Source: a virus
Virus genome (UHGV): UHGV-0298230
Reading direction: 5' to 3' (one strand)
Length of the DNA stretch: 24,011 nt
In this document: piece by piece, positions 236-11,144 of the stretch
Position numbering within the stretch: the stretch's first letter is position 1
Layout of the letters: each line of letters starts with the position of its first letter
The notes under the pieces: model-generated
The model's database searches: none
What the model saw: only the letters and a program-made list of their open reading frames with translations
What the model was told of the DNA's origin: nothing
Made by a program: the position numbers and the translations under genes

Positions 236-280
236 GGGTAAAAAGTGGATAAAATAATTTTACCCACCGGATTTTTACCC
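236..280. repeat. Cluster of the same 9-mer in both orientations: GGGTAAAAA 236-244, GGATAAAAT 247-255, ATTTTACCC 257-265 (inverted), ATTTTTACCC 271-280 (inverted); candidate arm-type sites overlapping the int translation start
   Basis: Direct reading of sequence; the repeats end 1 nt before the int ATG at 281. Confidence 0.45.
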
Positions 281-1438
281 ATGCTCACCGTTAAGCAGAT
301 TGAAGCAGCAAAGCCGAAAGAAAAACCATACCGCCTTCTCGATGGTAATGGCCTGTACCTTTATGTCCCTGTATCCGGGAAAAAGGTATGGCAGCTTCGC
401 TACAAGATTGACGGTAAGGAGAAAATCCTGACCGTCGGAAAATATCCGCTTATGACTTTGCAGGAAGCAAGGGATAAAGCATGGACTGCGAGGAAAGACA
501 TCTCGGTTGGCATCGATCCGGTAAAAGCGAAAAAGGCTTCGTCTAACAACAATTCCTTTAGCGCCATTTACAAGGAATGGTACGAGCACAAGAAGCAAGT
601 CTGGTCTGTAGGGTATGCGACTGAACTTGCAAAAATGTTTGATGACGACATTTTACCTATCATCGGCGGCCTTGAAATTCAGGATATTGAGCCGATGCAA
701 CTGCTGGAAGTAATCCGCAGATTTGAAGATCGCGGTGCAATGGAGCGAGCCAACAAAGCCCGCAGAAGATGCGGCGAGGTTTTCCGTTACGCTATTGTTA
801 CTGGTAGGGCTAAATATAACCCGGCACCTGACCTTGCTGACGCCATGAAGGGGTACCGCAAGAAGAACTTCCCGTTTCTTCCTGCAGACCAGATCCCGGC
901 ATTCAATAAAGCACTGGCAACATTTTCAGGAAGTATCGTATCGCTCATTGCCACCAAGGTTTTACGCTACACTGCCCTAAGAACGAAAGAGCTTCGTTCC
1001 ATGCTATGGAAGAACGTCGATTTTGAAAACAGAATTATCACCATCGACGCCAGTGTGATGAAAGGACGCAAAATTCATGTGGTCCCGATGTCAGACCAGG
1101 TGGTTGAACTTCTCACTACGTTAAGCTCCATCACCAAACCAGTATCAGAGTTTGTTTTTGCCGGGCGCAACGATAAGAAGAAGCCAATCTGCGAGAATGC
1201 GGTACTGCTTGTGATCAAACAAATCGGCTATGAAGGTCTGGAAAGCGGTCACGGATTCAGGCATGAATTCAGCACGATTATGAACGAGCACGAATGGCCT
1301 GCTGACGCTATTGAAGTACAACTTGCACATGCCAACGGCGGATCTGTGCGCGGGATTTACAACCATGCTCAGTATCTCGATAAACGCAGAGAAATGATGC
1401 AGTGGTGGGCGGACTGGCTTGATGAAAAGGTGGAGTGA
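281..1438 (+). CDS. intS: Tyrosine integrase, P4/IntS-type (N-terminal DUF4102-like arm-binding domain plus C-terminal catalytic domain), 385 aa
   Basis: ORF 245..1438 begins with GTG; the first ATG is at 281 (MLTVKQIEAAKPKEKPYRLLDGNGLYLYVP...), a typical P4-family integrase N-terminus. The sequence matches my recollection of E. coli CPS-53/KplE1 IntS. C-terminal HxxR...Y-type region is present. Confidence 0.9.
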   Translation: MLTVKQIEAAKPKEKPYRLLDGNGLYLYVPVSGKKVWQLRYKIDGKEKILTVGKYPLMTLQEARDKAWTARKDISVGIDPVKAKKASSNNNSFSAIYKEWYEHKKQVWSVGYATELAKMFDDDILPIIGGLEIQDIEPMQLLEVIRRFEDRGAMERANKARRRCGEVFRYAIVTGRAKYNPAPDLADAMKGYRKKNFPFLPADQIPAFNKALATFSGSIVSLIATKVLRYTALRTKELRSMLWKNVDFENRIITIDASVMKGRKIHVVPMSDQVVELLTTLSSITKPVSEFVFAGRNDKKKPICENAVLLVIKQIGYEGLESGHGFRHEFSTIMNEHEWPADAIEVQLAHANGGSVRGIYNHAQYLDKRREMMQWWADWLDEKVE

Positions 1439-1590
1439 TCCACCTTAACCACTATCGAAGAGCACAAAGCCTTGCAATCCAGCGCAACGCTTTGTGTGTC
1501 TCAGTTTTGTCTCATCAACCATAGCAAGTATCGATCGATTGAGACTTGGATGATAGACTTCATGCCTTTCAGAATTCATTGATTAAATAA

Positions 1591-1953
1591 ATGTTAAAGC
1601 TATTTGCAAAGTACACCTCGATTGGCGTGCTGAACACACTTATACACTGGGTGGTTTTTGGTGTATGTATCTATGCCGCGCATACCAATCAGGCTCTGGC
1701 AAACTTCGCAGGTTTCGTTGTGGCTGTGAGTTTTAGCTTCTTCGCGAATGCAAGATTCACATTCAAAGCATCGACTACAACGATGCGCTACATGTTATAT
1801 GTCGGGTTCATGGGAACACTGAGTGCAACTGTTGGATGGGCTGCTGATAGATGTTCACTTCCTCCAATTGTCACTCTCATCACCTTCTCAGCCATCAGTC
1901 TTGTGTGCGGTTTCGTCTATTCAAAGTTCATTGTCTTTAGGGATGCGAAATGA
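1591..1953 (+). CDS. gtrA: GtrA, bactoprenol-linked glucose flippase (120 aa, 4-TM small membrane protein)
   Basis: Size, hydrophobicity and sequence ([24 protein letters not shown]...) typical of GtrA/YfdG; stop overlaps the gtrB start (ATGA at 1950-1953). Confidence 0.9.
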
Positions 1954-2873
1954 AGATATCTCTTGTAGTTCCTGTCTTCAATGAAGAAGAAGCAATACCA
2001 ATTTTTTATAAAACGGTACGTGAATTCGAAGAGTTGAAGCCATACGAAGTGGAAATTGTTTTCATAAATGACGGCAGCAAAGACGCTACGGAGTCAATTA
2101 TTAATGCTCTGGCTGTTTCAGATCCTCTAGTTGTTCCGCTGTCATTTACACGAAACTTTGGTAAAGAACCAGCATTATTCGCAGGGTTAGACCATGCAAC
2201 AGGCGATGCTGTTATTCCTATTGATGTTGACCTGCAAGACCCGATTGAGGTTATTCCTCATCTGATTGAAAAGTGGCAAGCAGGTGCCGATATGGTGCTT
2301 GCTAAACGATCTGACCGATCAACGGATGGCAGACTGAAGAGGAAAACCGCCGAGTGGTTCTATAAGCTACATAACAAAATTAGCAACCCGCAGATCGAGG
2401 AAAACGTTGGTGATTTCCGCTTGATGTCTCGCGAGGTGGTGGAAAACATTAAGCTCATGCCAGAGCGCAACCTGTTTATGAAGGGCGTGCTGAGCTGGGT
2501 TGGCGGACGCACCGATGTCGTTGAATATGCACGAGCAGAACGAGTCGCAGGCAGCACTAAATTTAACGGATGGAAACTGTGGAACCTTGCCCTTGAGGGG
2601 ATAACCAGTTTCTCAACATTCCCGCTGCGCATGTGGACTTATATCGGATTGTTCGTTGCTGGAATTGCTTTTCTTTATGGTGCATGGATGATTTTTGACA
2701 CGCTTGTATTCGGCAATGCTGTTCGTGGATATCCATCGTTATTGGTCTCCATTCTTTTCCTTGGAGGTATTCAACTTATCGGTATCGGTGTACTTGGTGA
2801 ATATATAGGAAGAATTTATGTGGAAGTAAAATGCAGACCACGATATATTTTAAAGAAAAAGGAACAATCATGA
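1950..2873 (+). CDS. gtrB: GtrB, bactoprenol glucosyltransferase (GT2 family, 307 aa)
   Basis: N-terminal GT2 motifs ([10 protein letters not shown]..., DGSKD, D-x-D region) and two C-terminal TM helices; classic position after gtrA. Confidence 0.92.
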
Positions 2874-4141
2874 ATAGCATAAACACAAACAGAATATTTT
2901 TGTTTTTGATTATATTTGTTATATGTTTCATCATATTCTGCATGCGTCGTCCTGATATTATTTCACACCCTCAACTATGGGCAGAGGATGGACGGGTATG
3001 GCTTGGTCAGGCTTATGCATTGGGCCCTCTGAAATCTATAATTTTAGTACAGGATGGTTACTATCAGACAATTTCAAAACTTGTTGCGACATTCTCCATG
3101 CTGTTCCCATTATATCTATCACCTTTTATTTTCACTGTTATTGCATTATCGATAAGATGCGTAATAATAACCTTCATACTATCTAATAGATTCAAAAGCG
3201 TTTCTATATATCCAAGAATATTAATTTCAATCTTCATTTTAACTATGCCACACCTTGAAGAGGTGCATGCCAACGTAACCAACACTCATTGGTATATGGC
3301 AATATGGCTATTCTTGGTGCTGGTAGCAGATAGAACTGATGGATTATATTGGAAAGCACACGACTTTTTGGTGATGGTTGTGGCTGGCCTAAGTGGGCCA
3401 TTCATTGTTTTTTTAGCTCCTGTTGCCTTACTAAGAATTACAAACGGAGATATTCTAAAAACTCCTATCAATGCAGTAAAAAATGCATTCAGAAACTTAA
3501 ACTTATTCTACATAACTTTCGCAATAGTGTGTTTAATTCAGATAGCCGCGATACTTCTCTCTTCTAAAGGCTCTCGACCGACCGCGCCACTTGGTGCAGG
3601 TGTAGGGATTTTGATGGATATACTATCCTCCAGAGTATTCCTTGGCTCATTTCTTAGTGAGAGCTTATCAAGAAAGGTGTGGGATCTGCATGCTTTAAAT
3701 TACTTTGTTTCTTTATGTGGCCTATCAATTAGTGCATACGTGCTATTAAAAGGGAACTGGAAAGAAAAAGCATTAGTGATTTTTCCTTATCTTATGTTGG
3801 GATTTGCCCTTGCCAGACCAGTCATTGCAAGAGACCAGCCTCAATGGCCTCTCTTACAAATAGGACCAGGACAAAGGTATTTTGTCATACCGGCCATATT
3901 TTGGGTGTCGATACTTCTAGCATTCACTAATATGCTTCATGGGCATGTAAAGAAATTAGCATTTTGCATAGTGGCTTGCTCAGTAATTATATCTGGAATT
4001 GTTAGCTTTAAAATTGAAAAAAGACCTAACAATGGATGGATACAAGAGGCATACAAATATGAGACAGCAGAGCCAGGGAGTCGCGTGAAAATGCACACAC
4101 TACCACACTCAGGATGGTATTTAGATATAATAAAAAAATAA
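2831..4141 (+). CDS. Serotype-specific O-antigen glucosyltransferase (GtrC-type polytopic membrane protein), 436 aa; alternative start at 2870 (423 aa)
   Basis: Highly hydrophobic multi-TM protein directly after gtrB; visibly AT-rich compared with flanking genes, as is typical of type-specific gtr genes. ATG at 2870 overlaps the gtrB stop (ATGA) and has AAGGAA 6 nt upstream, so it may be the true start. Confidence 0.8.
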
Positions 4142-4142
4142 G

Positions 4143-4170
4143 TTAAGGGCGGTATTCGCCCTTAATTTTA
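4143..4170. terminator. Bidirectional rho-independent terminator between the convergent gtrC and tailspike genes
   Basis: Perfect hairpin TTAAGGGCG-gtatt-CGCCCTTAA (4143-4165), flanked by an A-run upstream and TTTTA downstream; sits between stops at 4139-4141 (+) and 4168-4170 (-). Confidence 0.75.
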
Positions 4171-6060
4171 TCTAACTCTTGTTATCATAAAGTCAAAATC
4201 TGCATCAGCCAAGTTGCCAGAGTTATCAGTGGTCACGATCCTGATGGCTGTTGTGCTTGGCTTGCCTGCATATAGCACCTTAAACCCGTTAGTTTTAGTA
4301 CTTGCTACTACCTGAAAGTCATTTACTGTTGGTCCATATAAGAAAGCGCTATCAATTGAATATACCCCTGTGGATTGTTTTGCTATTGTTAAATAAGATG
4401 GTGCATACGCAACACCTGCCGACGTTACACTTCCAGAAATCACCGATGAAGTGCTTACCGTAGATATAGACTTGCTTATGTCCTCACTAAAATGACAGGT
4501 ATCCATTCCATTTAAAGTCATATAAGCACCTCCTGAGATAAATGGTCTCGAAGCGCTAGGTATGTATCCAAAAGCTGTTTGAGTAAAAAAATGACACCCA
4601 TTAAGGTTAACAATGACACGCCCACCACCAGTGCTTAACGCTCTAATCACATATGTACAATAACCGCCTGATGAATTCCCCCTTATAAATGTGCATGAAT
4701 TGATATTTACAATAAGAGGTGAAGATGTCATGTTATTAACCTGAATGTCTGATATTCCTTGATTTGCTTCAAAATAGCAATCAGATATATTTATCACAGA
4801 CATTGGTTCTTTAGCTCTTAGGTAAACACCTCCTGTACCAGTATCTCCCTGAGTTCCATTACCCTCAAAATTGCAGTTGTTTAGATTTATCCTTGTGCCT
4901 ATCTCTCCTTCAATTCCAAATTTTGAGTTACCACTAAAAACACCATTTATTTTTAGTGCGTTAACTGTGCTGTTTGTTCCTCCGTTGATGTACATACCGT
5001 AGTTATTATATTGAGAGTTAATTCTGTTAAATTCACTGGTAAGAACTCCTGTTATTACCAAGCCTGAATTATTTCTTACGAGATACACATCCTCAACTTT
5101 TAGGTATGCAGCATTGCTTAACCTTAATCCAACTCCAGAGTTACCAGTACCATAAACAGTGAAATTAGATAACTTCATACCGCTATGCACACCCTGCCCG
5201 CCCCCTTCTGAATTACCTATATACTCAAGGAAATCATTGCCATTGGTGTTAAATGCAGTATTCGCCATTGACTCGCCAGTAAAGTCAAACCTCTTACTTT
5301 TTCTTCCCATTACAGGAAAATTTGATCCAGAGTGGTTTACTGTAACTTTTGTGGTAGAATTGTATTGCCCATCCTTAATTTCTATACCTCCAGTACCAGT
5401 ATTAAGCATATTTTGAATAGCAGGTGAAACCTCTGTTCCAGATTTCACGCCAAACCATGAAGCCATTTTTGCGCCATTATATGAACGCTTCCAGCGACGG
5501 CCTACTGCATCAATTAATACTGTTCCATCATCATCTTCTGTCGTTGTATCATCTGAATCAAGGAAGAACCATCCTTCTCCTCCATCCTGATTATGTTCTC
5601 TTCCTACGCATTTTATTTGCGTTCCAGAAACGTTAGATGTCCTTATTTGTTCATAAGTCGCCCCAACAATATAAGATTCACCATCAACTGCTGCTAATTT
5701 GTTTATGAAAGCTGGCAATGCCTGATCGGGGTCATACTTCAGCACATTAGGAAAATAGAACTGCTGCGTACCATACGCATCATAAACAGCCATAGAATGG
5801 CCTTGCACGGTAACGAATTTGGCAATCTGTCCGTTATATACAGGGTAACCAGCCGCATTAATGATGATTGGTTGCGAAACAGGAACGTGAGAACCATCTT
5901 CGTTCTCTACATAAACCTGAATCTGGTTTTCAGGATTTACCGGGTCAGTGTCAATTTTACCGATATAAATTTTGCCATTGGCAACCGCTTTAAAAGAACG
6001 CGCCATAGTGAAGAGTTGCGAAGGCATACTCACTACAACATTGGCTGTAATGTCTGTCAT
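4168..6060 (-). CDS. Tailspike protein (630 aa): conserved P22-type N-terminal head-binding domain plus parallel beta-helix receptor-binding/O-antigen-cleaving domain
   Basis: N-terminal ~113 aa ([43 protein letters not shown]...KYDPDQ) closely resembles P22 gp9 head-binding domain; remainder has beta-helix-like repeats ([33 protein letters not shown]). Confidence 0.9.
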
Positions 6061-6135
6061 TTAATTTGCTCCAGATACAAGGAATCGCCGCAGCGTGGCT
6101 ACGGTTGGTATTTGTTGCATACCGAAACGGTACGA

Positions 6136-6164
6136 TTGTTGATTTGTACAGTAGGTTTTACGAT
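6136..6164 (+). promoter_or_regulatory. Candidate sigma70 promoter for the second mnt-like gene (-35 TTGTTG 6136-6141, 17-bp spacer, -10 TACGAT 6159-6164), adjacent to palindrome TACCGaaaCGGTA (6120-6132)
   Basis: Hexamer match and spacing only; weak. Confidence 0.3.
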
Positions 6165-6192
6165 GCCATTCCACCCATTTGGTGAGGCATTG

Positions 6193-6450
6193 ATGATGTA
6201 CAGCAAATACGATGAGGCGCAGTTCCACTTGAGGCTTACGCACGAGTTGCACGCCAAGATTAAGCAACGTGCAAAAATGAATAACAGGTCTATCAATTCC
6301 GAAATTGTGGCTACGATGGAAGAATCGCTCTCCAAACCATCACCTGTAAGCGGGTATCGTGATGAAGAAGAGAGGCTTGCCTCATTAATCTCGGAACGAG
6401 TAAAAGAAGTTGCGGCTGATATTCTTAGAAAAGAAAAAACCCGCGATTAA
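6193..6450 (+). CDS. mnt: Mnt-like ribbon-helix-helix repressor (Arc/Mnt family), 85 aa
   Basis: Sequence MMYSKYDEAQFHLRLTHELHAKIKQRAKMNNRSINSEIVATMEESLSKPSPVSGYRDEEERLA... closely parallels P22 Mnt as I recall it (…NGRSMNSE…SKPSPVTGYRNDAERLA…); SD GGTGAGG 6 nt upstream of the ATG at 6193. The long ORF 5797..6450 in the track is an artefactual N-terminal extension antisense to the tailspike. Confidence 0.8.
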   Translation: MMYSKYDEAQFHLRLTHELHAKIKQRAKMNNRSINSEIVATMEESLSKPSPVSGYRDEEERLASLISERVKEVAADILRKEKTRD

Positions 6451-6458
6451 GCGGGTTT
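6437..6458. terminator. Hairpin terminator AAACCCGC-gattaa-GCGGGTTT between the convergent mnt-like gene and the ant operon
   Basis: 8-bp GC-rich stem; on the minus strand it is followed by a T-run (TTTTTCTTTTC); the loop contains the mnt stop codon. Confidence 0.6.
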
Positions 6459-6464
6459 AATTGG

Positions 6465-6686
6465 TTAGTTATCAAAAAGTCCGTAAGTTTCTTCTTCTTC
6501 AGGTGTAAGGGGAAGAATCTCTACTCTATCTATAGATACCTTTTCAATGTACCCATGAGGTCTACTTAAAATTAAAGCTCTCTCATGCCACAGAACTCCA
6601 AGAATGTGATACCTTCCAGCATCTCCTTTTACCCTGGCTCTTCCTTTGATTCTTGGCGGCATAATGCCATATCTTTTCTTTGCCAT
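6465..6686 (-). CDS. Hypothetical small protein (73 aa), basic N-terminus and acidic C-terminus
   Basis: Start ATG overlaps the stop of the upstream gene (TAATG), indicating translational coupling; MAKKRYGIMPPRIKGRARVKGD...LTPEEEETYGLFDN; no family recognised. Confidence 0.55.
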   Translation of the reverse strand: MAKKRYGIMPPRIKGRARVKGDAGRYHILGVLWHERALILSRPHGYIEKVSIDRVEILPLTPEEEETYGLFDN

Positions 6687-7414
6687 TATGCAACATTGCT
6701 CCCATGAATCAGGTGTTGTAGTGCTTTAACACCCTCCGCATTGTAGCGGAATGCTTCCACCTGTTTGCTTGAATGCGCAGATTTATCCAAGAAGAACTTC
6801 CCGTACTGCTCAGTTTTGAGGTTGTTTGCGTTAGCAATGCGACCAATCTTGTTGGCCGTTACTCCAAGCTGCTCTGCAACCTCCCCTGCTGAGTAGTAAT
6901 GCTCTTCTATTGCCGGAAGAGGTATTGCATTAAAACCAACGAGCGGGTTGATTATACTTGCTGCCGCTGTCTGCTTTGCCTCCGGCGCAAGATTTGGCAT
7001 CAGATCGAACAGATTGGTAACAGCTTCAACCGTCATTTTCAATGTTCGCGCTTGACGATACTCAACAAGTCCACTCGCTGATTTACCGCTTTTAATGTGC
7101 GCTTCTTGCATACTTTCAAGTTGGTCTACCAGTGAGCGGCGAACGGCTTTTGACTCGCGAGCGGCAACTCGCAATGCTTGCTTGATTGACATCTCAATGA
7201 TAACCATCGAAGTTTTGTTCGCTTTTTGCACTACACTTTTTGTGTAGTGCTCTCCATCCAATTCATCTTCAATTTTCTCGATGAATTTGTTATTACGAAC
7301 CTCCGGCTCACCGCACTGTCTACGAGCCTGATTTACCATCTCAAGCAGGCGCTGGCTGTCAATGGTTTTATCCGTGACAACGGATCCGATGTTTGCTACA
7401 TTCTTAAAAGTCAT
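6686..7414 (-). CDS. Antirepressor-type regulatory protein, possibly Rha/ORF6N-like N-terminal region and KilA-C/ANT-like C-terminal region (243 aa from ATG at 7414)
   Basis: AAGGAA 6 nt upstream of the ATG at 7414; C-terminal ...YYSAGEVAEQLGVTANKIGRIANANNLKTEQYGKF resembles antirepressor KilA-C-type motifs; the ORF track start at 7501 is a TTG directly after the upstream stop. Confidence 0.65.
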   Translation of the reverse strand: MTFKNVANIGSVVTDKTIDSQRLLEMVNQARRQCGEPEVRNNKFIEKIEDELDGEHYTKSVVQKANKTSMVIIEMSIKQALRVAARESKAVRRSLVDQLESMQEAHIKSGKSASGLVEYRQARTLKMTVEAVTNLFDLMPNLAPEAKQTAAASIINPLVGFNAIPLPAIEEHYYSAGEVAEQLGVTANKIGRIANANNLKTEQYGKFFLDKSAHSSKQVEAFRYNAEGVKALQHLIHGSNVA

Positions 7415-7482
7415 TAGGCATTCCTTATGTGGTAGTAAGGGTGTGACATAGGCCGCCAGCAGCACACTGGCGGTTTTCTTTT
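7409..7482 (+). ncRNA. Candidate sar-like antisense RNA complementary to the start codon and SD of the 6686..7414 gene
   Basis: Plus-strand terminator CCGCCAG-cagcaca-CTGGCGG followed by TTTTCTTTT (7453-7482) lies in the intergenic gap of a minus-strand operon; candidate promoter -35 GTGACA (7374-7379), -10 TACATT (7397-7402); the transcript would contain UUCCUU, anti-SD to AAGGAA. Confidence 0.4.
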
Positions 7483-7501
7483 GCGCCGTCCTGTGCACCA
7501 A

Positions 7502-8140
7502 TCAATGAATCCATTCCTCGCCGCGAAGTTTTGCCAGCATTGGCTGAGCGTTCTTTACGACAAAATTGTTGGTATCAAGATTCTTCATTTCACGAAGAAG
7601 CGATTTCTTGGTTTCTTCTGACATGTAGCGAGTCTCATATGCAATATCGTAAATCCTTCCAGAAAGCTCAGAACCAATTTGCTTCATTCCTGGGTAGATG
7701 TGTTTGCACATTTGTTGACTCTTCTCCATCCACAATTGTAAGTAGCAGAGATTAACCAGCTCTTCGTCAGTAAACTGTTTTGCAATCGGTGAGCATTCTG
7801 CCTGCCGATCCAAAATATCCAGCACCCAGCGGCGGAACTCTTTGGCCTTGGGCGTAGAAGCAAACATCGCCACCAAGTGAGCGCCTCGGAGCGAGTAAAC
7901 TCTGACCGATTTGTTACGTAAGCTATTGTTTATCCCGTTGACCTTCATATTGAGGGTCAATGACATTGAGTCGGAAAATTCGTCAGCATTACGGGCATAA
8001 ATTTGGCTGATGGCATCAGTTTTTTTATAGCCGAGAGCCTTAGCTAGTTCGGCGGAGGTGAACCAGATAGACCCGCCCTCTGTTACAGGGTTAAAAGTGA
8101 ATCCTTGGAAGTTATAATCTGATTTTGCTACAATATTCAT
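7502..8140 (-). CDS. Antirepressor-type protein with Bro-N/AntA-like N-terminal domain (212 aa from ATG at 8140)
   Basis: AAGGAA 6 nt upstream of the ATG at 8140; N-terminal region (FNPVTEGGSIWFTSAELAKALGYKK...VRVYSLRGAHLVAMFASTPKAKEFRRWVLDIL) matches the Bro-N/AntA pattern; the track's longer ORF start at 8224 overlaps the arc-like gene and lacks an SD. Confidence 0.7.
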   Translation of the reverse strand: MNIVAKSDYNFQGFTFNPVTEGGSIWFTSAELAKALGYKKTDAISQIYARNADEFSDSMSLTLNMKVNGINNSLRNKSVRVYSLRGAHLVAMFASTPKAKEFRRWVLDILDRQAECSPIAKQFTDEELVNLCYLQLWMEKSQQMCKHIYPGMKQIGSELSGRIYDIAYETRYMSEETKKSLLREMKNLDTNNFVVKNAQPMLAKLRGEEWIH

Positions 8141-8215
8141 GTTAGTTTCCTTGGGTACGGTTACTGACATAGAGGCCCGGTTTGTGTTCGCGCACTTCCG
8201 GGCTTCACTATTTTT
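8141..8215 (+). ncRNA. Candidate sar-like antisense RNA covering the SD and start of the Bro-N antirepressor gene
   Basis: Plus-strand candidate promoters (-35 TTGGAA 8105-8110 / -10 TACAAT 8129-8134, or -10 TATAAT 8113-8118) inside the 5' end of the minus-strand gene; imperfect stem-loop 8173-8205 followed by TATTTTT (8209-8215) in the arc-ant gap; arrangement matches P22 sar RNA. Confidence 0.4.
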
Positions 8216-8390
8216 ACTGGGCATTAGCTCTTTCCTCTCTCAGGCTTTTAGCCAGTCGCTGCACAATCGCAGAGTTGATAGAAATTCCATCCATTTCAGC
8301 TACGCGTCTGATCTCCTCCTTCATTCGCGCTGGCAAACGAAGCTGGAAACTCTGACTTTTACGACCACTGTAAAGAACATCGCTCATCAT
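8214..8390 (-). CDS. arc: Arc-like ribbon-helix-helix repressor (58 aa from ATG at 8390; track ORF extends to 8405)
   Basis: ...SQSFQLRLPARMKEEIRRVAEMDGISINSAIVQRLAKSL... has the Arc/Mnt RHH signature; GGAG 6 nt upstream of the ATG at 8390; divergent from the mnt-like gene across an operator-rich region, as in P22 immI. Confidence 0.75.
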   Translation of the reverse strand: MMSDVLYSGRKSQSFQLRLPARMKEEIRRVAEMDGISINSAIVQRLAKSLREERANAQ

Positions 8391-8401
8391 CAATATCTCC
8401 G

Positions 8402-8475
8402 TCATAATGACATCACCGTGATGTCATGACACCATTATGATGCCATTGCTCATAATGTCAATATGATGCTACTGT
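8402..8475. promoter_or_regulatory. Divergent promoter/operator region: 21-bp perfect palindrome ATGACATCA-ccg-TGATGTCAT (8407-8427), repeated TCATAAT/ATTATGA half-sites, and a strong minus-strand promoter (-35 TTGACA at 8461..8456, 16-bp spacer, -10 CATAAT at 8439..8434)
   Basis: Direct reading; the palindrome lies at about +1 of the minus-strand promoter, consistent with an operator for an RHH repressor. Confidence 0.55.
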
Positions 8476-8510
8476 GTTTTTTATTGCTCATATGCCTTGC
8501 GAATAAGAAA

Positions 8511-8762
8511 ATGTCAGAAAAAGACGAATCAAATTTCATAGAAAGATTTACGGTTAGAATGCCTGAAGGCATGCGTAGTGCTATTGCGGAAAGGGCTAAA
8601 CGAAACGGTCGATCTATGAACTCAGAGATAGTTCAAATTCTTGAGGATGCGTTATCATCTGACGTCTCATCAGTAGACAAATCATTAGATCTTAAACAAA
8701 TAAAATCTTTACTTGATAAAATTTCCAACGAGTTACTGGATAGAATCCCAAAAGACACATAA
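8511..8762 (+). CDS. mnt: Mnt-like ribbon-helix-helix repressor (83 aa from ATG at 8511)
   Basis: MSEKDESNFIERFTVRMPEGMRSAIAERAKRNGRSMNSEIVQILEDAL... has the Arc/Mnt signature (NGRSMNSE); same length as P22 Mnt; the track start at 8463 lies inside the operator region. Confidence 0.75.
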   Translation: MSEKDESNFIERFTVRMPEGMRSAIAERAKRNGRSMNSEIVQILEDALSSDVSSVDKSLDLKQIKSLLDKISNELLDRIPKDT

Positions 8763-8808
8763 CAAAACATTATCATCCGGTGTTCTGCTCAAAACTAAGG
8801 AGGTTGGT

Positions 8809-9129
8809 GTGTATATATCGCTATCTACCATTTTTTTCATCTGCTTAGCTATTTGGCTTTTAAGAATATGGCAGGATTGCTCTGTCAGCCATGCTGCTGC
8901 GGTGAGAAATAAAAACGCCCTCATAAAAGAAGCTGAAAACGTTGTCTTATCAATGGATCACCTTTCATGGACCGAGATGACTACAGGGCAACAAGAGGTT
9001 TATGAGTGTGCGATTGAGCGGTTAAGGCTGCTTAAATCGTACAAAAAGAACCACGCACCCGACTCATTCCCATTCCTGAAAGAATGGCCGAGATGGTATG
9101 ACCCGAAAAAAGCAACCATCAACCGCTAA
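8809..9129 (+). CDS. Hypothetical small membrane-anchored or secreted protein (~106 aa) at the position occupied by sieA in P22
   Basis: Strong SD AGGAGG (8798-8803) 5 nt upstream of in-frame GTG at 8809; N-terminal hydrophobic segment (YISLSTIFFICLAIWLLRIW) then a soluble domain; no family recognised. Confidence 0.55.
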   Translation: MYISLSTIFFICLAIWLLRIWQDCSVSHAAAVRNKNALIKEAENVVLSMDHLSWTEMTTGQQEVYECAIERLRLLKSYKKNHAPDSFPFLKEWPRWYDPKKATINR

Positions 9130-9137
9130 CCAACTTT

Positions 9138-11144
9138 TTACTGCTGGGCTTTCTCACTTGAAGCCTGAATTAGAGGTGTAAGAGTTTCAGATACCCGTCT
9201 GATCGCTCTATCATAAGCAGTACTTCCTTTTGGTGTGTTTGCTAACTTTAGTAATGCGTTCCTCATCGCGCGTGACTCATAGCCCCTGCCAGCCATACCG
9301 ATACCAGCTCCAACTGCCGCAACTTTTGCAAACATTGGATTTGTAACAGATGCAAGAGCTGTTATCAGCGCTGCTGGACCAGCTACCATTTGCCCTGTTA
9401 GTGGGCTTGCGGCAGCAGTAGCTGCCTGTCTAGTGGAATCAAGATATTTCATTATCCCATCAAGCTGTTTCCCATGCTCTCCTCTGAAGAACGTCTCAGC
9501 CTGCTTCCGATTCCTTTTCATTTCATTAATAAACTTCTCAACGCTAAGCTTTCCTGAATCGCTTGTCGCCTTATCCATTGCACGCTGAACAAGTGCTGCT
9601 CTAGCATTTTGACGCCCACTATCATCAAGCAATCGATAAAGTTGCGCCCTTTCCGCTGGGCTTTGGCTGAATACTAGTTTAGTGACATCTTCTGGCGTTG
9701 TTTTACCACTCTGAATAGCTTTTTGGACACGTGTATTGCTCATCATGTCGTTGAACTTTGCCCAAGAACGATCAATACGCGACATGTTTTGCGCTTCCTT
9801 CGCACCTAGTTTTGCGCCAACCGCTTTTTTCATGTCTGTTGTGTATGCGTTATAAACAGACTGCGCAGCTTTCTCCAGCGTATCTCTATCGACCTCGTCA
9901 GGTGCTGCCATAAAGCGCTTACGTAAGTTTGTACGGTTTTCTCTAGCTAATTGCAGGTTATTTGGACCGCTGGTGATGTCATTTCTAAACTGTTGAAGGA
10001 CAGAAACAGCTGAGCGGTCTTGCGATACTCCTGGGCGAGTTAACTTGGAAATCTGCTCATCAATTGCTTTCACTGTTCCAGTGATGTCAACAGGAGTATC
10101 CCCCATCAAACTGATGATCCTGTCGTACCGCTTGCCAGCAGCCTGAATAAATTGCTGCTGACCACGAGTAGCTGATTGGTAAAGTTGTGCGTCAGATATT
10201 CCACCAACATTATCGCTAAATGTTCTAACTAAATCTTCCCTGGCCTTTTGCTGTGCATTTCTTATCCCACCTGTTCCGGCTATTGGGATTCGCTCAGCCA
10301 TAGCTCGTGCTTGCTTACCAATATTTGTTCCCGGTTCCACAAGATCTGTTGTCATCAGTGGCAAGTTGTTCTGCTTGGCAAAGTCAATCTGAGCTTGTTT
10401 TTCAGGAGCAATCTTACCCATAGCAGAACGAGACACTGCGCTTGCGGTGTTTTCTACACCCTTCAGTACCCCACCAAGACCAGCAGAAATTGCAGTTTGA
10501 ACTGGATTAACATTCTCACCGCCAGCGATCTTTGTGGCACCCTGTAAAGCTAAATCAGTAGCGCCTGATTTTAGTGTTGCACCTACAACAGACGCAGCTC
10601 TACCTGCTGGAGTGAATGCAAGAGCATTTGCCAAGAATGACGTTATATCCTGCGGTGACAAACCAGGCTTGTTAAGTGCATATTCCCCTGAAGGAAGGGT
10701 GACTATGGAATTTCCCTTCTCATCCTTCCGGATTTTCCCGCCAATACTTTGCAGTATTTTCTCCTGTGAAGCGTCGGAACCAAATAGCTGCCCCAATCCA
10801 GCACGCAGCGCATCAGTGCTTAAGCTATTAAGCTCTGGAGCAGACCCAACATTTTGCAGTCTCTCCATTTCTGGTGTCATTCGGCTTTCACCGGTAACGG
10901 CATCGCGCATTGCAGCACCTAAAACAGCCCCTTGCTCAGCAGATCGATCTAGTCCTTCCTTCTGCTGAGTGGCAAGCTGTGCATATCCTGATGCAAGTGA
11001 GTTGTCTGCTGGCGATTGCTGAACACCTTGTTGTGTTGGTGCTGACTGACCAGCAAAATACTCATCAATGGCGGTGCCAATATCTTCGGTGCTCGTACCA
11101 TCAGGAAAGGTAAATGTCTTACCGTTTGCAGTTACTTTCATCAT
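9138..11144 (-). CDS. Ejection (internal virion) protein, P22 gp16-like (668 aa)
   Basis: Position and order after gp7/gp20 homologues; N-terminus [30 protein letters not shown]; start overlaps the upstream stop (ATGA). Confidence 0.85.

Follow-up and report, generated by a model that had tools for sequence, protein, structure and literature searches.

Phage P22's immI region is a textbook case of layered control, built from two ribbon-helix-helix (RHH) repressors, an antisense RNA and an antirepressor. It occupies the gap between genes 16 and 9, where sieA, orf59a, mnt, arc, sar and ant are found. Villafane et al. named this gap the "ant moron" in 2008 and distinguished ten types in sixteen genomes, with at most six genes (PMC2629481). 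We analyzed the corresponding region, positions 6061 to 9137, of a 24,011-nucleotide stretch of viral DNA (UHGV virus genome UHGV-0298230; the window), which represents the integrase-to-terminase part of a P22-like (Lederbergvirus-type) Escherichia coli prophage whose late genes lie on the minus strand. The block carries seven genes, and we consider it likely that it is a mosaic, enlarged P22 immI region, assembled from two joined modules and working as a P22-style switch. The case is made from gene content, from homology to P22 Mnt, P22 Arc and the C-terminal domain of P22 Ant, from the positions of sar, Pmnt and Omnt, and from the co-variation of operators with repressors; from these we infer the binding events, the targets of two antirepressor-type proteins (Ant1 and Ant2), the timing of expression, and the roles of a small protein (orf73) and a membrane protein. 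No study of any version of this block was found in open-access full-text papers or in bioRxiv.

The block fills the gene 16 to gene 9 gap of a P22-like late operon exactly, with the tailspike gene (4168-6060, minus strand; Head_binding domain, E 7e-67) starting at 6060 and the gene for a gp16-like injection protein (9138-11144, minus) ending at 9138, and it therefore belongs by position to the immI or ant moron regions. Reading away from the tailspike gene, it holds mnt2 (6196-6450, plus), for an 84 amino acid (aa) protein with an RHH domain (Pfam Arc, 3.8e-15) followed by an Mnt C-terminal domain; orf73 (6465-6686, minus), for a 73-aa protein that is first basic and then acidic (phrog_4977, no Pfam match); ant2 (6686-7414, minus; 242 aa), which matches phrog_1726, "anti-repressor," at 5e-101 and has no Pfam match; ant1 (7502-8140, minus; 212 aa; Pfam Bro-N, 1.4e-10, and P22_AR_C, 2.6e-13); arc (8214-8387, minus; 57 aa; Pfam Arc, 1.1e-11), which aligns with P22 Arc; mnt1 (8511-8762, plus; 83 aa; Pfam Arc, 4.7e-18); and a membrane gene (8809-9129, plus; 106 aa; phrog_10450, function unknown), whose product has one N-terminal hydrophobic helix. 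The first gene of the Pant operon is arc, which diverges from mnt1 across 123 bp holding face-to-face promoters; mnt2 runs towards the ant operon and away from the tailspike gene. The arrangement is thus the one by which immI regions are recognized, with an Arc-family RHH gene at the head of an ant operon and a divergent RHH maintenance repressor. A preliminary description of the window had named these seven genes with their order and orientations, all of which agree with Pfam, PHROG and the annotation of E. coli KSC207. The KSC207 chromosome is 99.9% identical to window positions 6000-9200, and the NCBI annotation of its prophage shows the same seven genes, with mnt1 flagged "incomplete." The earlier placement of the block at the position of P22 sieA-mnt-arc-ant was confirmed, as was its being larger than the P22 immI, with three Arc/Mnt-type RHH proteins and two antirepressor-type proteins. 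What had been taken for a single expanded island is indeed enlarged, but it consists of two joined immI modules rather than one expanded operon.

With P22 the block has in common its position, a pair of divergent promoters that overlap and carry palindromic operators, a first gene of the Arc type, a candidate antisense RNA over the ant ribosome-binding site, an antirepressor with a P22AR C-terminal domain, a true Mnt homologue, and, downstream of the maintenance repressor, a gene for a membrane protein. Unlike P22, it has two maintenance-type repressors instead of one, and the true Mnt homologue has moved to the tailspike side with an operator of its own, while the repressor that faces Pant has a different C-terminal part. 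Further differences are an Ant in which Bro-N replaces P22_AR_N, a strongly diverged sar-like RNA, the additional genes ant2 and orf73 in the Pant operon, and a membrane protein with no detectable similarity to SieA.

The preliminary description had listed mnt1 as the first Mnt-like gene. Its RHH domain is real, but on full-length alignment it is mnt2, beside the tailspike gene, that is the true homologue of P22 Mnt. The product of mnt2 is 44% identical to P22 Mnt over all 83 P22 residues, including the C-terminal domain and the string SKPSPVSGYR, and homology therefore runs through both the RHH and the tetramerisation domain. The product of mnt1 is 35% identical, with similarity that ends after the RHH domain and gives way to an amphipathic C-terminal helix of its own; over the RHH domain it is 63% identical to gp19 of phage SPN3UB. 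We regard mnt1 as a predicted functional analogue of Mnt.

For the operator of Mnt2, the region upstream of mnt2 was aligned with the mnt-tailspike gaps of phages VSe13, Sf101, IME10, Gally and ST64T and with the region upstream of P22 mnt. A 17-bp palindrome at 6118-6134, CATACCGAAACGGTACG, falls on the mapped P22 Omnt, GGTCCACGGTGGACC, and on the ST64T and Gally palindromes, AGACCACGGTGGTCT and AGACCACTGTGGTCT. Beside it, the proposed promoter Pmnt2 (6136-6164, plus; TTGTTG-17-TACGAT) lines up position by position with Pmnt as mapped in P22 (TTGAGA-17-TATCAT). Three classes of palindrome track three classes of Mnt beta strand: GGTCCACGGTGGACC occurs with the recognition strand HFNFRM in P22, AGACCAC(G/T)GTGGTCT with QFNLRL in ST64T and Gally, and ATACCGAAA(C/T)GGTAC with QFHLRL in this window, IME10 and Sf101. 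In VSe13, which also has the QFHLRL strand, the palindrome arms are the same and one base is changed beside the centre (ATACCTAAATGGTAC). The palindrome at 6118-6134, here called Omnt2, is accordingly proposed as the predicted operator of Mnt2. One exact site occurs in the window. No Omnt2-type site was found at the island's Pant, and the sole other site in the window is a copy of the core with one mismatch (AGACCTCATGGGTAC) inside orf73 (6549-6563, minus); the core is expected 0.44 times, two matches were obtained in 4 of 100 shuffles, and the orf73 site is probably due to chance. The possibility that a working remnant of Pant fires from Omnt2 towards the tailspike gene was weighed, but the aligned hexamers, ATGGCA and CAAATC, were judged degenerate.

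A scan of viral contigs with the 16-mer of Omnt2 identified 93 loci with island proteins, in which the site always lies beside mnt2 and/or the tailspike gene. In about 65 of the 93, mnt2 is the sole gene found between tailspike and gp16, and about 20 have expanded versions with ant2, ant1 and arc. The named phages with an orphan mnt, Sf101, IME10, ST64T, Gally and VSe13, have a promoter/operator layout homologous to that of mnt2, and three of them (IME10, Sf101 and VSe13) share with this window both the operator core and the QFHLRL strand. The mnt gene is the only gene between gp16 and tailspike in Sf101 and the only annotated one in ST64T; Gally and VSe13 have two other genes between mnt and gp16. 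It points away from the tailspike gene, and the two are separated by about 135 bp in ST64T, VSe13 and this window and, going by the annotation, by less in Sf101. The mnt2 product is 96-99% identical in VSe13 and in phage JEP4. Compared with the orphan-mnt phages, this window has a whole second immI cassette and the membrane gene inserted downstream of mnt. Since the orphan Mnt unit occurs alone elsewhere, the comparison indicates that an orphan-mnt moron received a full second immI cassette together with the membrane gene, or the reverse. The two-module reading gains from the recurrence of each part in other phages, the cassette in SPN3UB and the orphan mnt in Sf101, ST64T, Gally and VSe13.

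The same scan returned 27 further loci without island proteins, which we treated as unrelated to Mnt2; about 18 of these have the same promoter-like repeat before small open reading frames (ORFs). In such phage contigs the exact 16-mer, CATACCGAAACGGTAC, lies just after a TATATA box and occurs in two copies about 515 bp apart, each before a small ORF upstream of a terminase-like gene. These repeated sites look like the promoter-operator of another repressor system.

In the second module, a strong Pant-like promoter (8434-8461, minus; TTGACA-16-CATAAT, 11 of 12 consensus positions) and Pmnt1 (8440-8467, plus; ATGCCA-16-TATGAT) overlap face to face in the same manner as Pant and Pmnt of P22. Directly downstream of the Pant -10 element lies a perfect 21-bp palindrome, O1 (8407-8427), with the sequence ATGACATCACcGTGATGTCAT; it covers about +1 to +21 of Pant, which is the placement of Omnt in P22. 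Two 21-bp operator-like palindromes related to it, O2 and O3, are found at 8426-8446 and 8452-8472. Scored with a matrix that was built from these same three sites, O1 to O3 reach 18-27 bits, compared with 12.0 bits for the next-best site in the window and, over 30 shuffles, a best site per shuffle that averages 12.5 and never exceeds 17.5 bits. The motif is confined to 8405-8474, and a search for an O1-type operator near mnt2 found none.

Nature has provided swaps by which these sites may be assigned. In five viral contigs, which we call type B, Arc is 95-96% identical to the arc product of the window and has the same recognition strand, SQSFQLRLP, whereas the divergent repressor has the strand DRFNIRLP in place of the ERFTVRMP of mnt1. 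In these loci the entire operator set is replaced, while the -35 element of Pant and a few short stretches are retained, and the site at +1 is a 22-bp palindrome with one mismatch, AACTTGGTTCTAGAACCAATTT. SPN3UB, where the Pant -35 element is also kept, follows this pattern too, its strand and its type of operator each being a third kind. Because the operator set is replaced along with the divergent repressor while Arc stays constant, at least O1 is assigned to Mnt1 as its predicted operator. All three sites, O1 to O3, probably belong to Mnt1, and the Arc site is predicted to be among the short stretches shared by both cassette types.

These assignments suggest how the switch would work. In the lysogen, Pmnt1 would drive expression of Mnt1 and of the small membrane protein, and Mnt1 would bind the palindrome at the Pant start site, silencing arc-ant1-ant2-orf73. 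Upon infection of a cell without Mnt1, Pant would fire, Ant1 and possibly Ant2 would bind and inactivate lambdoid prophage repressors, and Arc would then shut off Pant. A sar-like RNA would block translation of ant1 from read-through transcripts, and a second antisense RNA may do likewise for ant2. In the other module, which consists of mnt2 with a weak promoter and a 17-bp operator and stands alone in Sf101 and most related contigs, Mnt2 would most likely bind its own operator, autoregulating, and may also block leftward transcription into the tailspike gene in the lysogen.

The repressors and operators might alternatively constitute a cross-immunity array, with two Mnt-type repressors shielding the lysogen from P22-like phages that have other Pant operators, and two antirepressor-type proteins widening the range of repressors inactivated on superinfection. 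Each of the three RHH proteins does have its own recognition strand, relatives show diverse operator classes, and up to four matching places were found per E. coli genome; in Salmonella, cross-talk between prophages through antirepressors acting in trans is documented (PMC3121763). In the 93 contigs, however, the Mnt2-type operator was never found at an arc-ant Pant but only beside mnt2 and the tailspike gene, so that no incoming target of Mnt2 is known, and such an array is, in our estimation, improbable.

Signals of expression were judged against P22 as well. The arc-ant1-ant2-orf73 operon ends at an intrinsic terminator (6437-6458, minus) with an 8-pair stem, five of its pairs G-C, followed by TTTCTTTT; it sits between the convergent stop codons of mnt2 and orf73, and on the other strand it forms a weaker terminator for mnt2. 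Within the operon, the start codon of orf73 overlaps the stop codon of ant2 (TAATG), an arrangement of translational coupling. Promoter-like sites in the window are no more frequent than expected by chance (8, versus 6.0 +/- 2.6 in shuffles) and terminators are likewise not enriched, so we relied only on signals homologous to mapped P22 signals, and the key promoter and terminator signals are positional homologues of these. The preliminary description had credited the block with promoters, operators, antisense RNAs and terminators of its own; the P22-homologous signals and the palindromes hold up, one antisense RNA, the sar-like one, is a well-supported candidate, and the second antisense RNA is a weak candidate.

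The sar-like RNA would be about 75 nucleotides long (8141-8215, plus), covering the ant1 ribosome-binding site and the arc-ant1 spacer and ending at a plus-strand terminator. A Psar-like promoter for it (8105-8134, plus; TTGGAA-18-TACAAT, TG-extended) lies within the first ant1 codons, in the position and orientation of the mapped P22 Psar. The sar region of P22 can be aligned with the arc-ant1 spacer, where a start-codon context, AACATGAATA, is in common with P22 ant, and the RNA is predicted to have the same two-hairpin fold as P22 sar (-31 kcal/mol, z-score -4.6; for P22, -29.5 and -5.3). Over its whole length (positions 1-68), the sar model of Rfam can be laid on 8141-8209, although below its gathering score. 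The candidate for a second antisense RNA (transcript about 7409-7485, within an element at 7374-7485, plus) has a promoter-like site at 7374-7402 (plus; GTGACA-17-TACATT) and a terminator on the plus strand only (7450-7476, a 10-pair stem then TCTTTT), and would span the ribosome-binding site and start codon of ant2. Its region is almost invariant in 17 loci, and the element is absent upstream of the ant2 homologue in Stx phages.

A number of observations weigh against the block being a working P22-style switch. The Arc operator was not located; the stretches common to both same-Arc cassette types are short. Pmnt2 is a weak promoter, and the ribosome-binding site of mnt1 is weak. In the related E. 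coli phage Kapi1, mnt is not detectably expressed in lysogens (PMC12922286), which advises caution in applying P22 rules unchanged. The Rfam sar model (RF00262) gives the sar-like RNA 17.3 bits against a gathering score of 43, with an E-value of 0.32 in 161 nucleotides, where the control sequences from P22, N7 and SPN3UB score 97.8, 94 and 48 bits. Searched at gathering thresholds, the whole window has no Rfam match; with E-values up to 10 over 5900-9300 only chance-level matches appear, and sar appeared only in the 161-nucleotide search. Because the score is below threshold despite the agreement in position, strand, promoter, fold and alignment, we call the RNA at 8141-8215 only sar-like, a predicted, diverged relative and not a certified family member. 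The second antisense RNA is proposed from consensus motifs alone, with a fold z-score of -2.0, and covariation, sought for both antisense RNAs in 15-17 related loci, could not be informative in sequences so similar. Ant1 lacks the N-terminal domain of P22 Ant (P22_AR_N) and has Bro-N in its place. For Ant2, no Pfam family is found at E-values up to 0.1 apart from a sub-threshold domain of unknown function, and in Stx2a phages the homologues are part of the early-left operon, with no immI control; Ant2 may not be an antirepressor. Separately from these points, the Rfam model of the SymR antitoxin RNA also matches 8138-8209 on the plus strand, at 18.4 bits where the gathering score is 61, and this sub-threshold match probably reflects merely the common shape of a hairpin followed by a terminator.

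The effector proteins differ in how far they can be classified. In Ant1, only the C-terminal half of the P22_AR_N plus P22_AR_C architecture of P22 Ant is matched, with 29% identity at an E-value of 1e-9; the DNA of ant1 is about 95% identical in SPN3UB. P22 Ant inactivates the c2-type prophage repressor by binding it, and no repressor gene of this kind is present in the window. Ant2 belongs to a family of more than 2000 proteins, nearly all of them "hypothetical," and has none of the Pfam domains KilA-N, Bro-N, ORF6N or ANT, but its predicted model (predicted local distance difference test, pLDDT, 70.5) has the two-domain fold, in which an alpha/beta domain at the N terminus precedes a winged helix at the C terminus. 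When this model was compared with viral models in Foldseek, the matches were to KilAC, antirepressor and KilA proteins, at E-values from 3e-9 to 1e-5. By modeled fold and architecture, although not by demonstrated function, Ant2 is thus antirepressor-type. Sequence searches of PDB with an ant2 profile and with ant1 gave chance matches only (nsp8 and designed repeat proteins). The orf73 family is real but narrow, with eight close relatives and a handful of remote ones at 34-49% identity; a barrel of the SH3/KOW/Tudor-like kind, together with an acidic helix at the C terminus, is predicted for it (pLDDT 78.5). The full orf73 alignment has no conserved stretch usable for a profile-based locus search, while a profile from a subset alignment found six Pseudomonas loci.

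It may also be that Ant2, orf73 and perhaps the membrane protein are cargo for counter-defence or host takeover, acting on functions of the host or of competitors rather than on phage repressors, by defence inhibition, perturbation of host transcription or phage exclusion, and that immI control gives them an immediate-early, self-limiting burst. The Ant2 homologues of Stx2a phages are found among small early-left accessory genes, and the remote orf73 relatives in arrays of small genes on Pseudomonas mobile elements and a megaplasmid, not beside an Ant2 homologue. The small barrel with an acidic tail modeled for orf73 is plausible as a protein-binding module, and the membrane gene, which lies in the sieA slot, has the same direction as the gene for the lysogenic repressor. 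This is an argument from genomic position only, and the membrane protein is dissimilar to SieA. Among the island proteins, PADLOC gave only marginal matches (best E-values 0.001-0.004 over short stretches), PADLOC and NCBIfam provided no usable assignment for any of the seven, and no anti-defence protein with a name or a solved structure was matched. We hold the cargo explanation to be quite unlikely, and find no evidence for a defence function or for the anti-defence function that had been suggested for the block.

The preliminary description had also pointed to superinfection exclusion, a suggestion that draws no support from SieA. BLASTP alignment of the 106-aa membrane protein with P22 SieA gave nothing at E-values up to 100, and the protein has a single predicted pass (Kyte-Doolittle 2.05 for residues 3-21), whereas SieA types A-C share a similar pattern of predicted transmembrane helices (PMC10883804); only the genomic slot is shared. 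The family of the membrane protein is narrow and has no named members. Its gene has a strong consensus ribosome-binding site, TAAGGAGGT, and lies in the gp16-proximal slot, which in related prophages holds SieA or another small gene; in phage N7 it is the last gene of the equivalent mnt-side operon. From this position alone one may reasonably guess at a role played by expression in the lysogen, exclusion for example.

The distribution of the block makes it less surprising than had been claimed. It is a form of a documented hypervariable ant moron; among 5426 complete E. coli genomes, 23 have its six-gene core, from mnt2 to mnt1, at 96-99% identity; and most of it, five of the seven genes, is found in phage JEP4. 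All seven genes occur in one of the 5426, KSC207, while the other 22 prophages have the six genes as here but a different gene beside gp16. JEP4 (MT740315) shares mnt2-orf73-ant2-ant1 at 95.5% DNA identity, with a different arc and with a LexA-like (S24) repressor replacing mnt1 and the membrane gene. That repressor gene, divergent from arc (locus L002, 5509-6078), encodes a 189-aa protein with a helix-turn-helix and a Peptidase_S24 domain, LexA/CI-like, potentially self-cleaving and not RHH; it would place the ant1-ant2-orf73 operon under SOS-type control. IS3-family elements interrupt the island in E. coli O111:H- 110512 and in strain HS; the prophage of HS is the one whose ant moron was listed as "HS-1" and described in 2008 as having no arc (PMC2629481).

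The cassette also occurs in SPN3UB, a lambdoid siphovirus of Salmonella (locus L013, 1412-3874), with the same logic: an arc-like gene, a divergent arc-sar-ant unit with an Rfam-detectable sar, a second KilA-N-superfamily protein (ORF6N) and then a coupled small ORF of 90 aa. A gene with a KilA-N domain is found near this cassette as well. The differences are its location in the tail-gene region and its own operators, and the lack of sequence similarity between the ORF6N protein and small ORF (gp22 and gp23) and ant2 and orf73. These were rejected as homologues, and the likeness is therefore organisational only. The presence of an immI-like cassette in a siphovirus implies that the cassette moves between phage types, and its layout shows that a tandem pair of KilA-superfamily effectors behind arc occurs outside this block as well.

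Another explanation is that the block is a patchwork left by frequent recombination at this locus, in which only arc-sar-ant1 and mnt1 work as a switch, mnt2 is the relic of an ant-less moron, and ant2 and orf73 are passengers without a part in immunity. The locus is in rapid flux (PMC2629481), and all its parts are found in other combinations: JEP4 has its S24 repressor in place of mnt1, phiKp_30 has ant2 without orf73, and strain A28 has another gp16-proximal gene. The full seven-gene form is as rare as noted above, and the Pant remnant beside Omnt2 is degenerate. But mnt2 is intact, with a promoter/operator stretch that is almost invariant over the 93 contigs, which argues for selection rather than decay; and ant2 and orf73 are intact and coupled, inside the Pant operon before its terminator, and conserved in the 23 genomes. 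A patchwork of this kind is in our view rather unlikely, and we retain the two-module switch as the best explanation. Comparison with well-characterised immI regions revealed none identical to the block. It is uncharacterised but ordinary in kind, a variant of a known hypervariable locus and not a new class of system.

Elsewhere in the window, a tyrosine integrase gene lies at 245-1438 (plus). From there to 4141 follow a gtrA-gtrB-like pair (GtrA_DPMS_TM, Glycos_transf_2) and, in the gtrC position, a 436-aa ORF with no Pfam match, and the region 245-4141, which converges on the tailspike gene, resembles a cassette for O-antigen modification. The tailspike ORF is 630 aa long in the window and 657 aa in the KSC207 annotation (locus L001, 1088-3061), where it ends 81 nucleotides further; the comparison with KSC207 covered 6000-9200 only, and the discrepancy may reflect differing 3' ends or a frameshift.

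What the variant shows is a switch rebuilt from exchangeable parts, in which repressor/operator pairs are swapped as units and effectors are swapped independently, and in which an orphan Mnt is retained beside the tailspike gene. We raise, very tentatively, a further interpretation. The orphan Mnt2-operator unit may be a conserved device independent of ant, gating tailspike transcription or protecting the lysogen from foreign antirepressor cassettes. Independently of this, the immI switch may have been co-opted so that two effectors with no part in immunity are delivered in an immediate-early pulse: Ant2, and a small protein of a new SH3-like family that Pseudomonas mobile elements also carry. 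In that case ant1 and ant2 would each be under an antisense brake of its own. The points of most use appear to be that natural swaps allow operators to be assigned to Mnt1 and Mnt2, that the orphan Mnt unit occurs widely, and that three genes open to testing, ant2, orf73 and the membrane gene, lie under a well-understood promoter. If the parts work as proposed, they would provide natural matched repressor-operator pairs for studies of RHH specificity, and a handle on the long-noticed question of why ant-less P22-like phages keep mnt.

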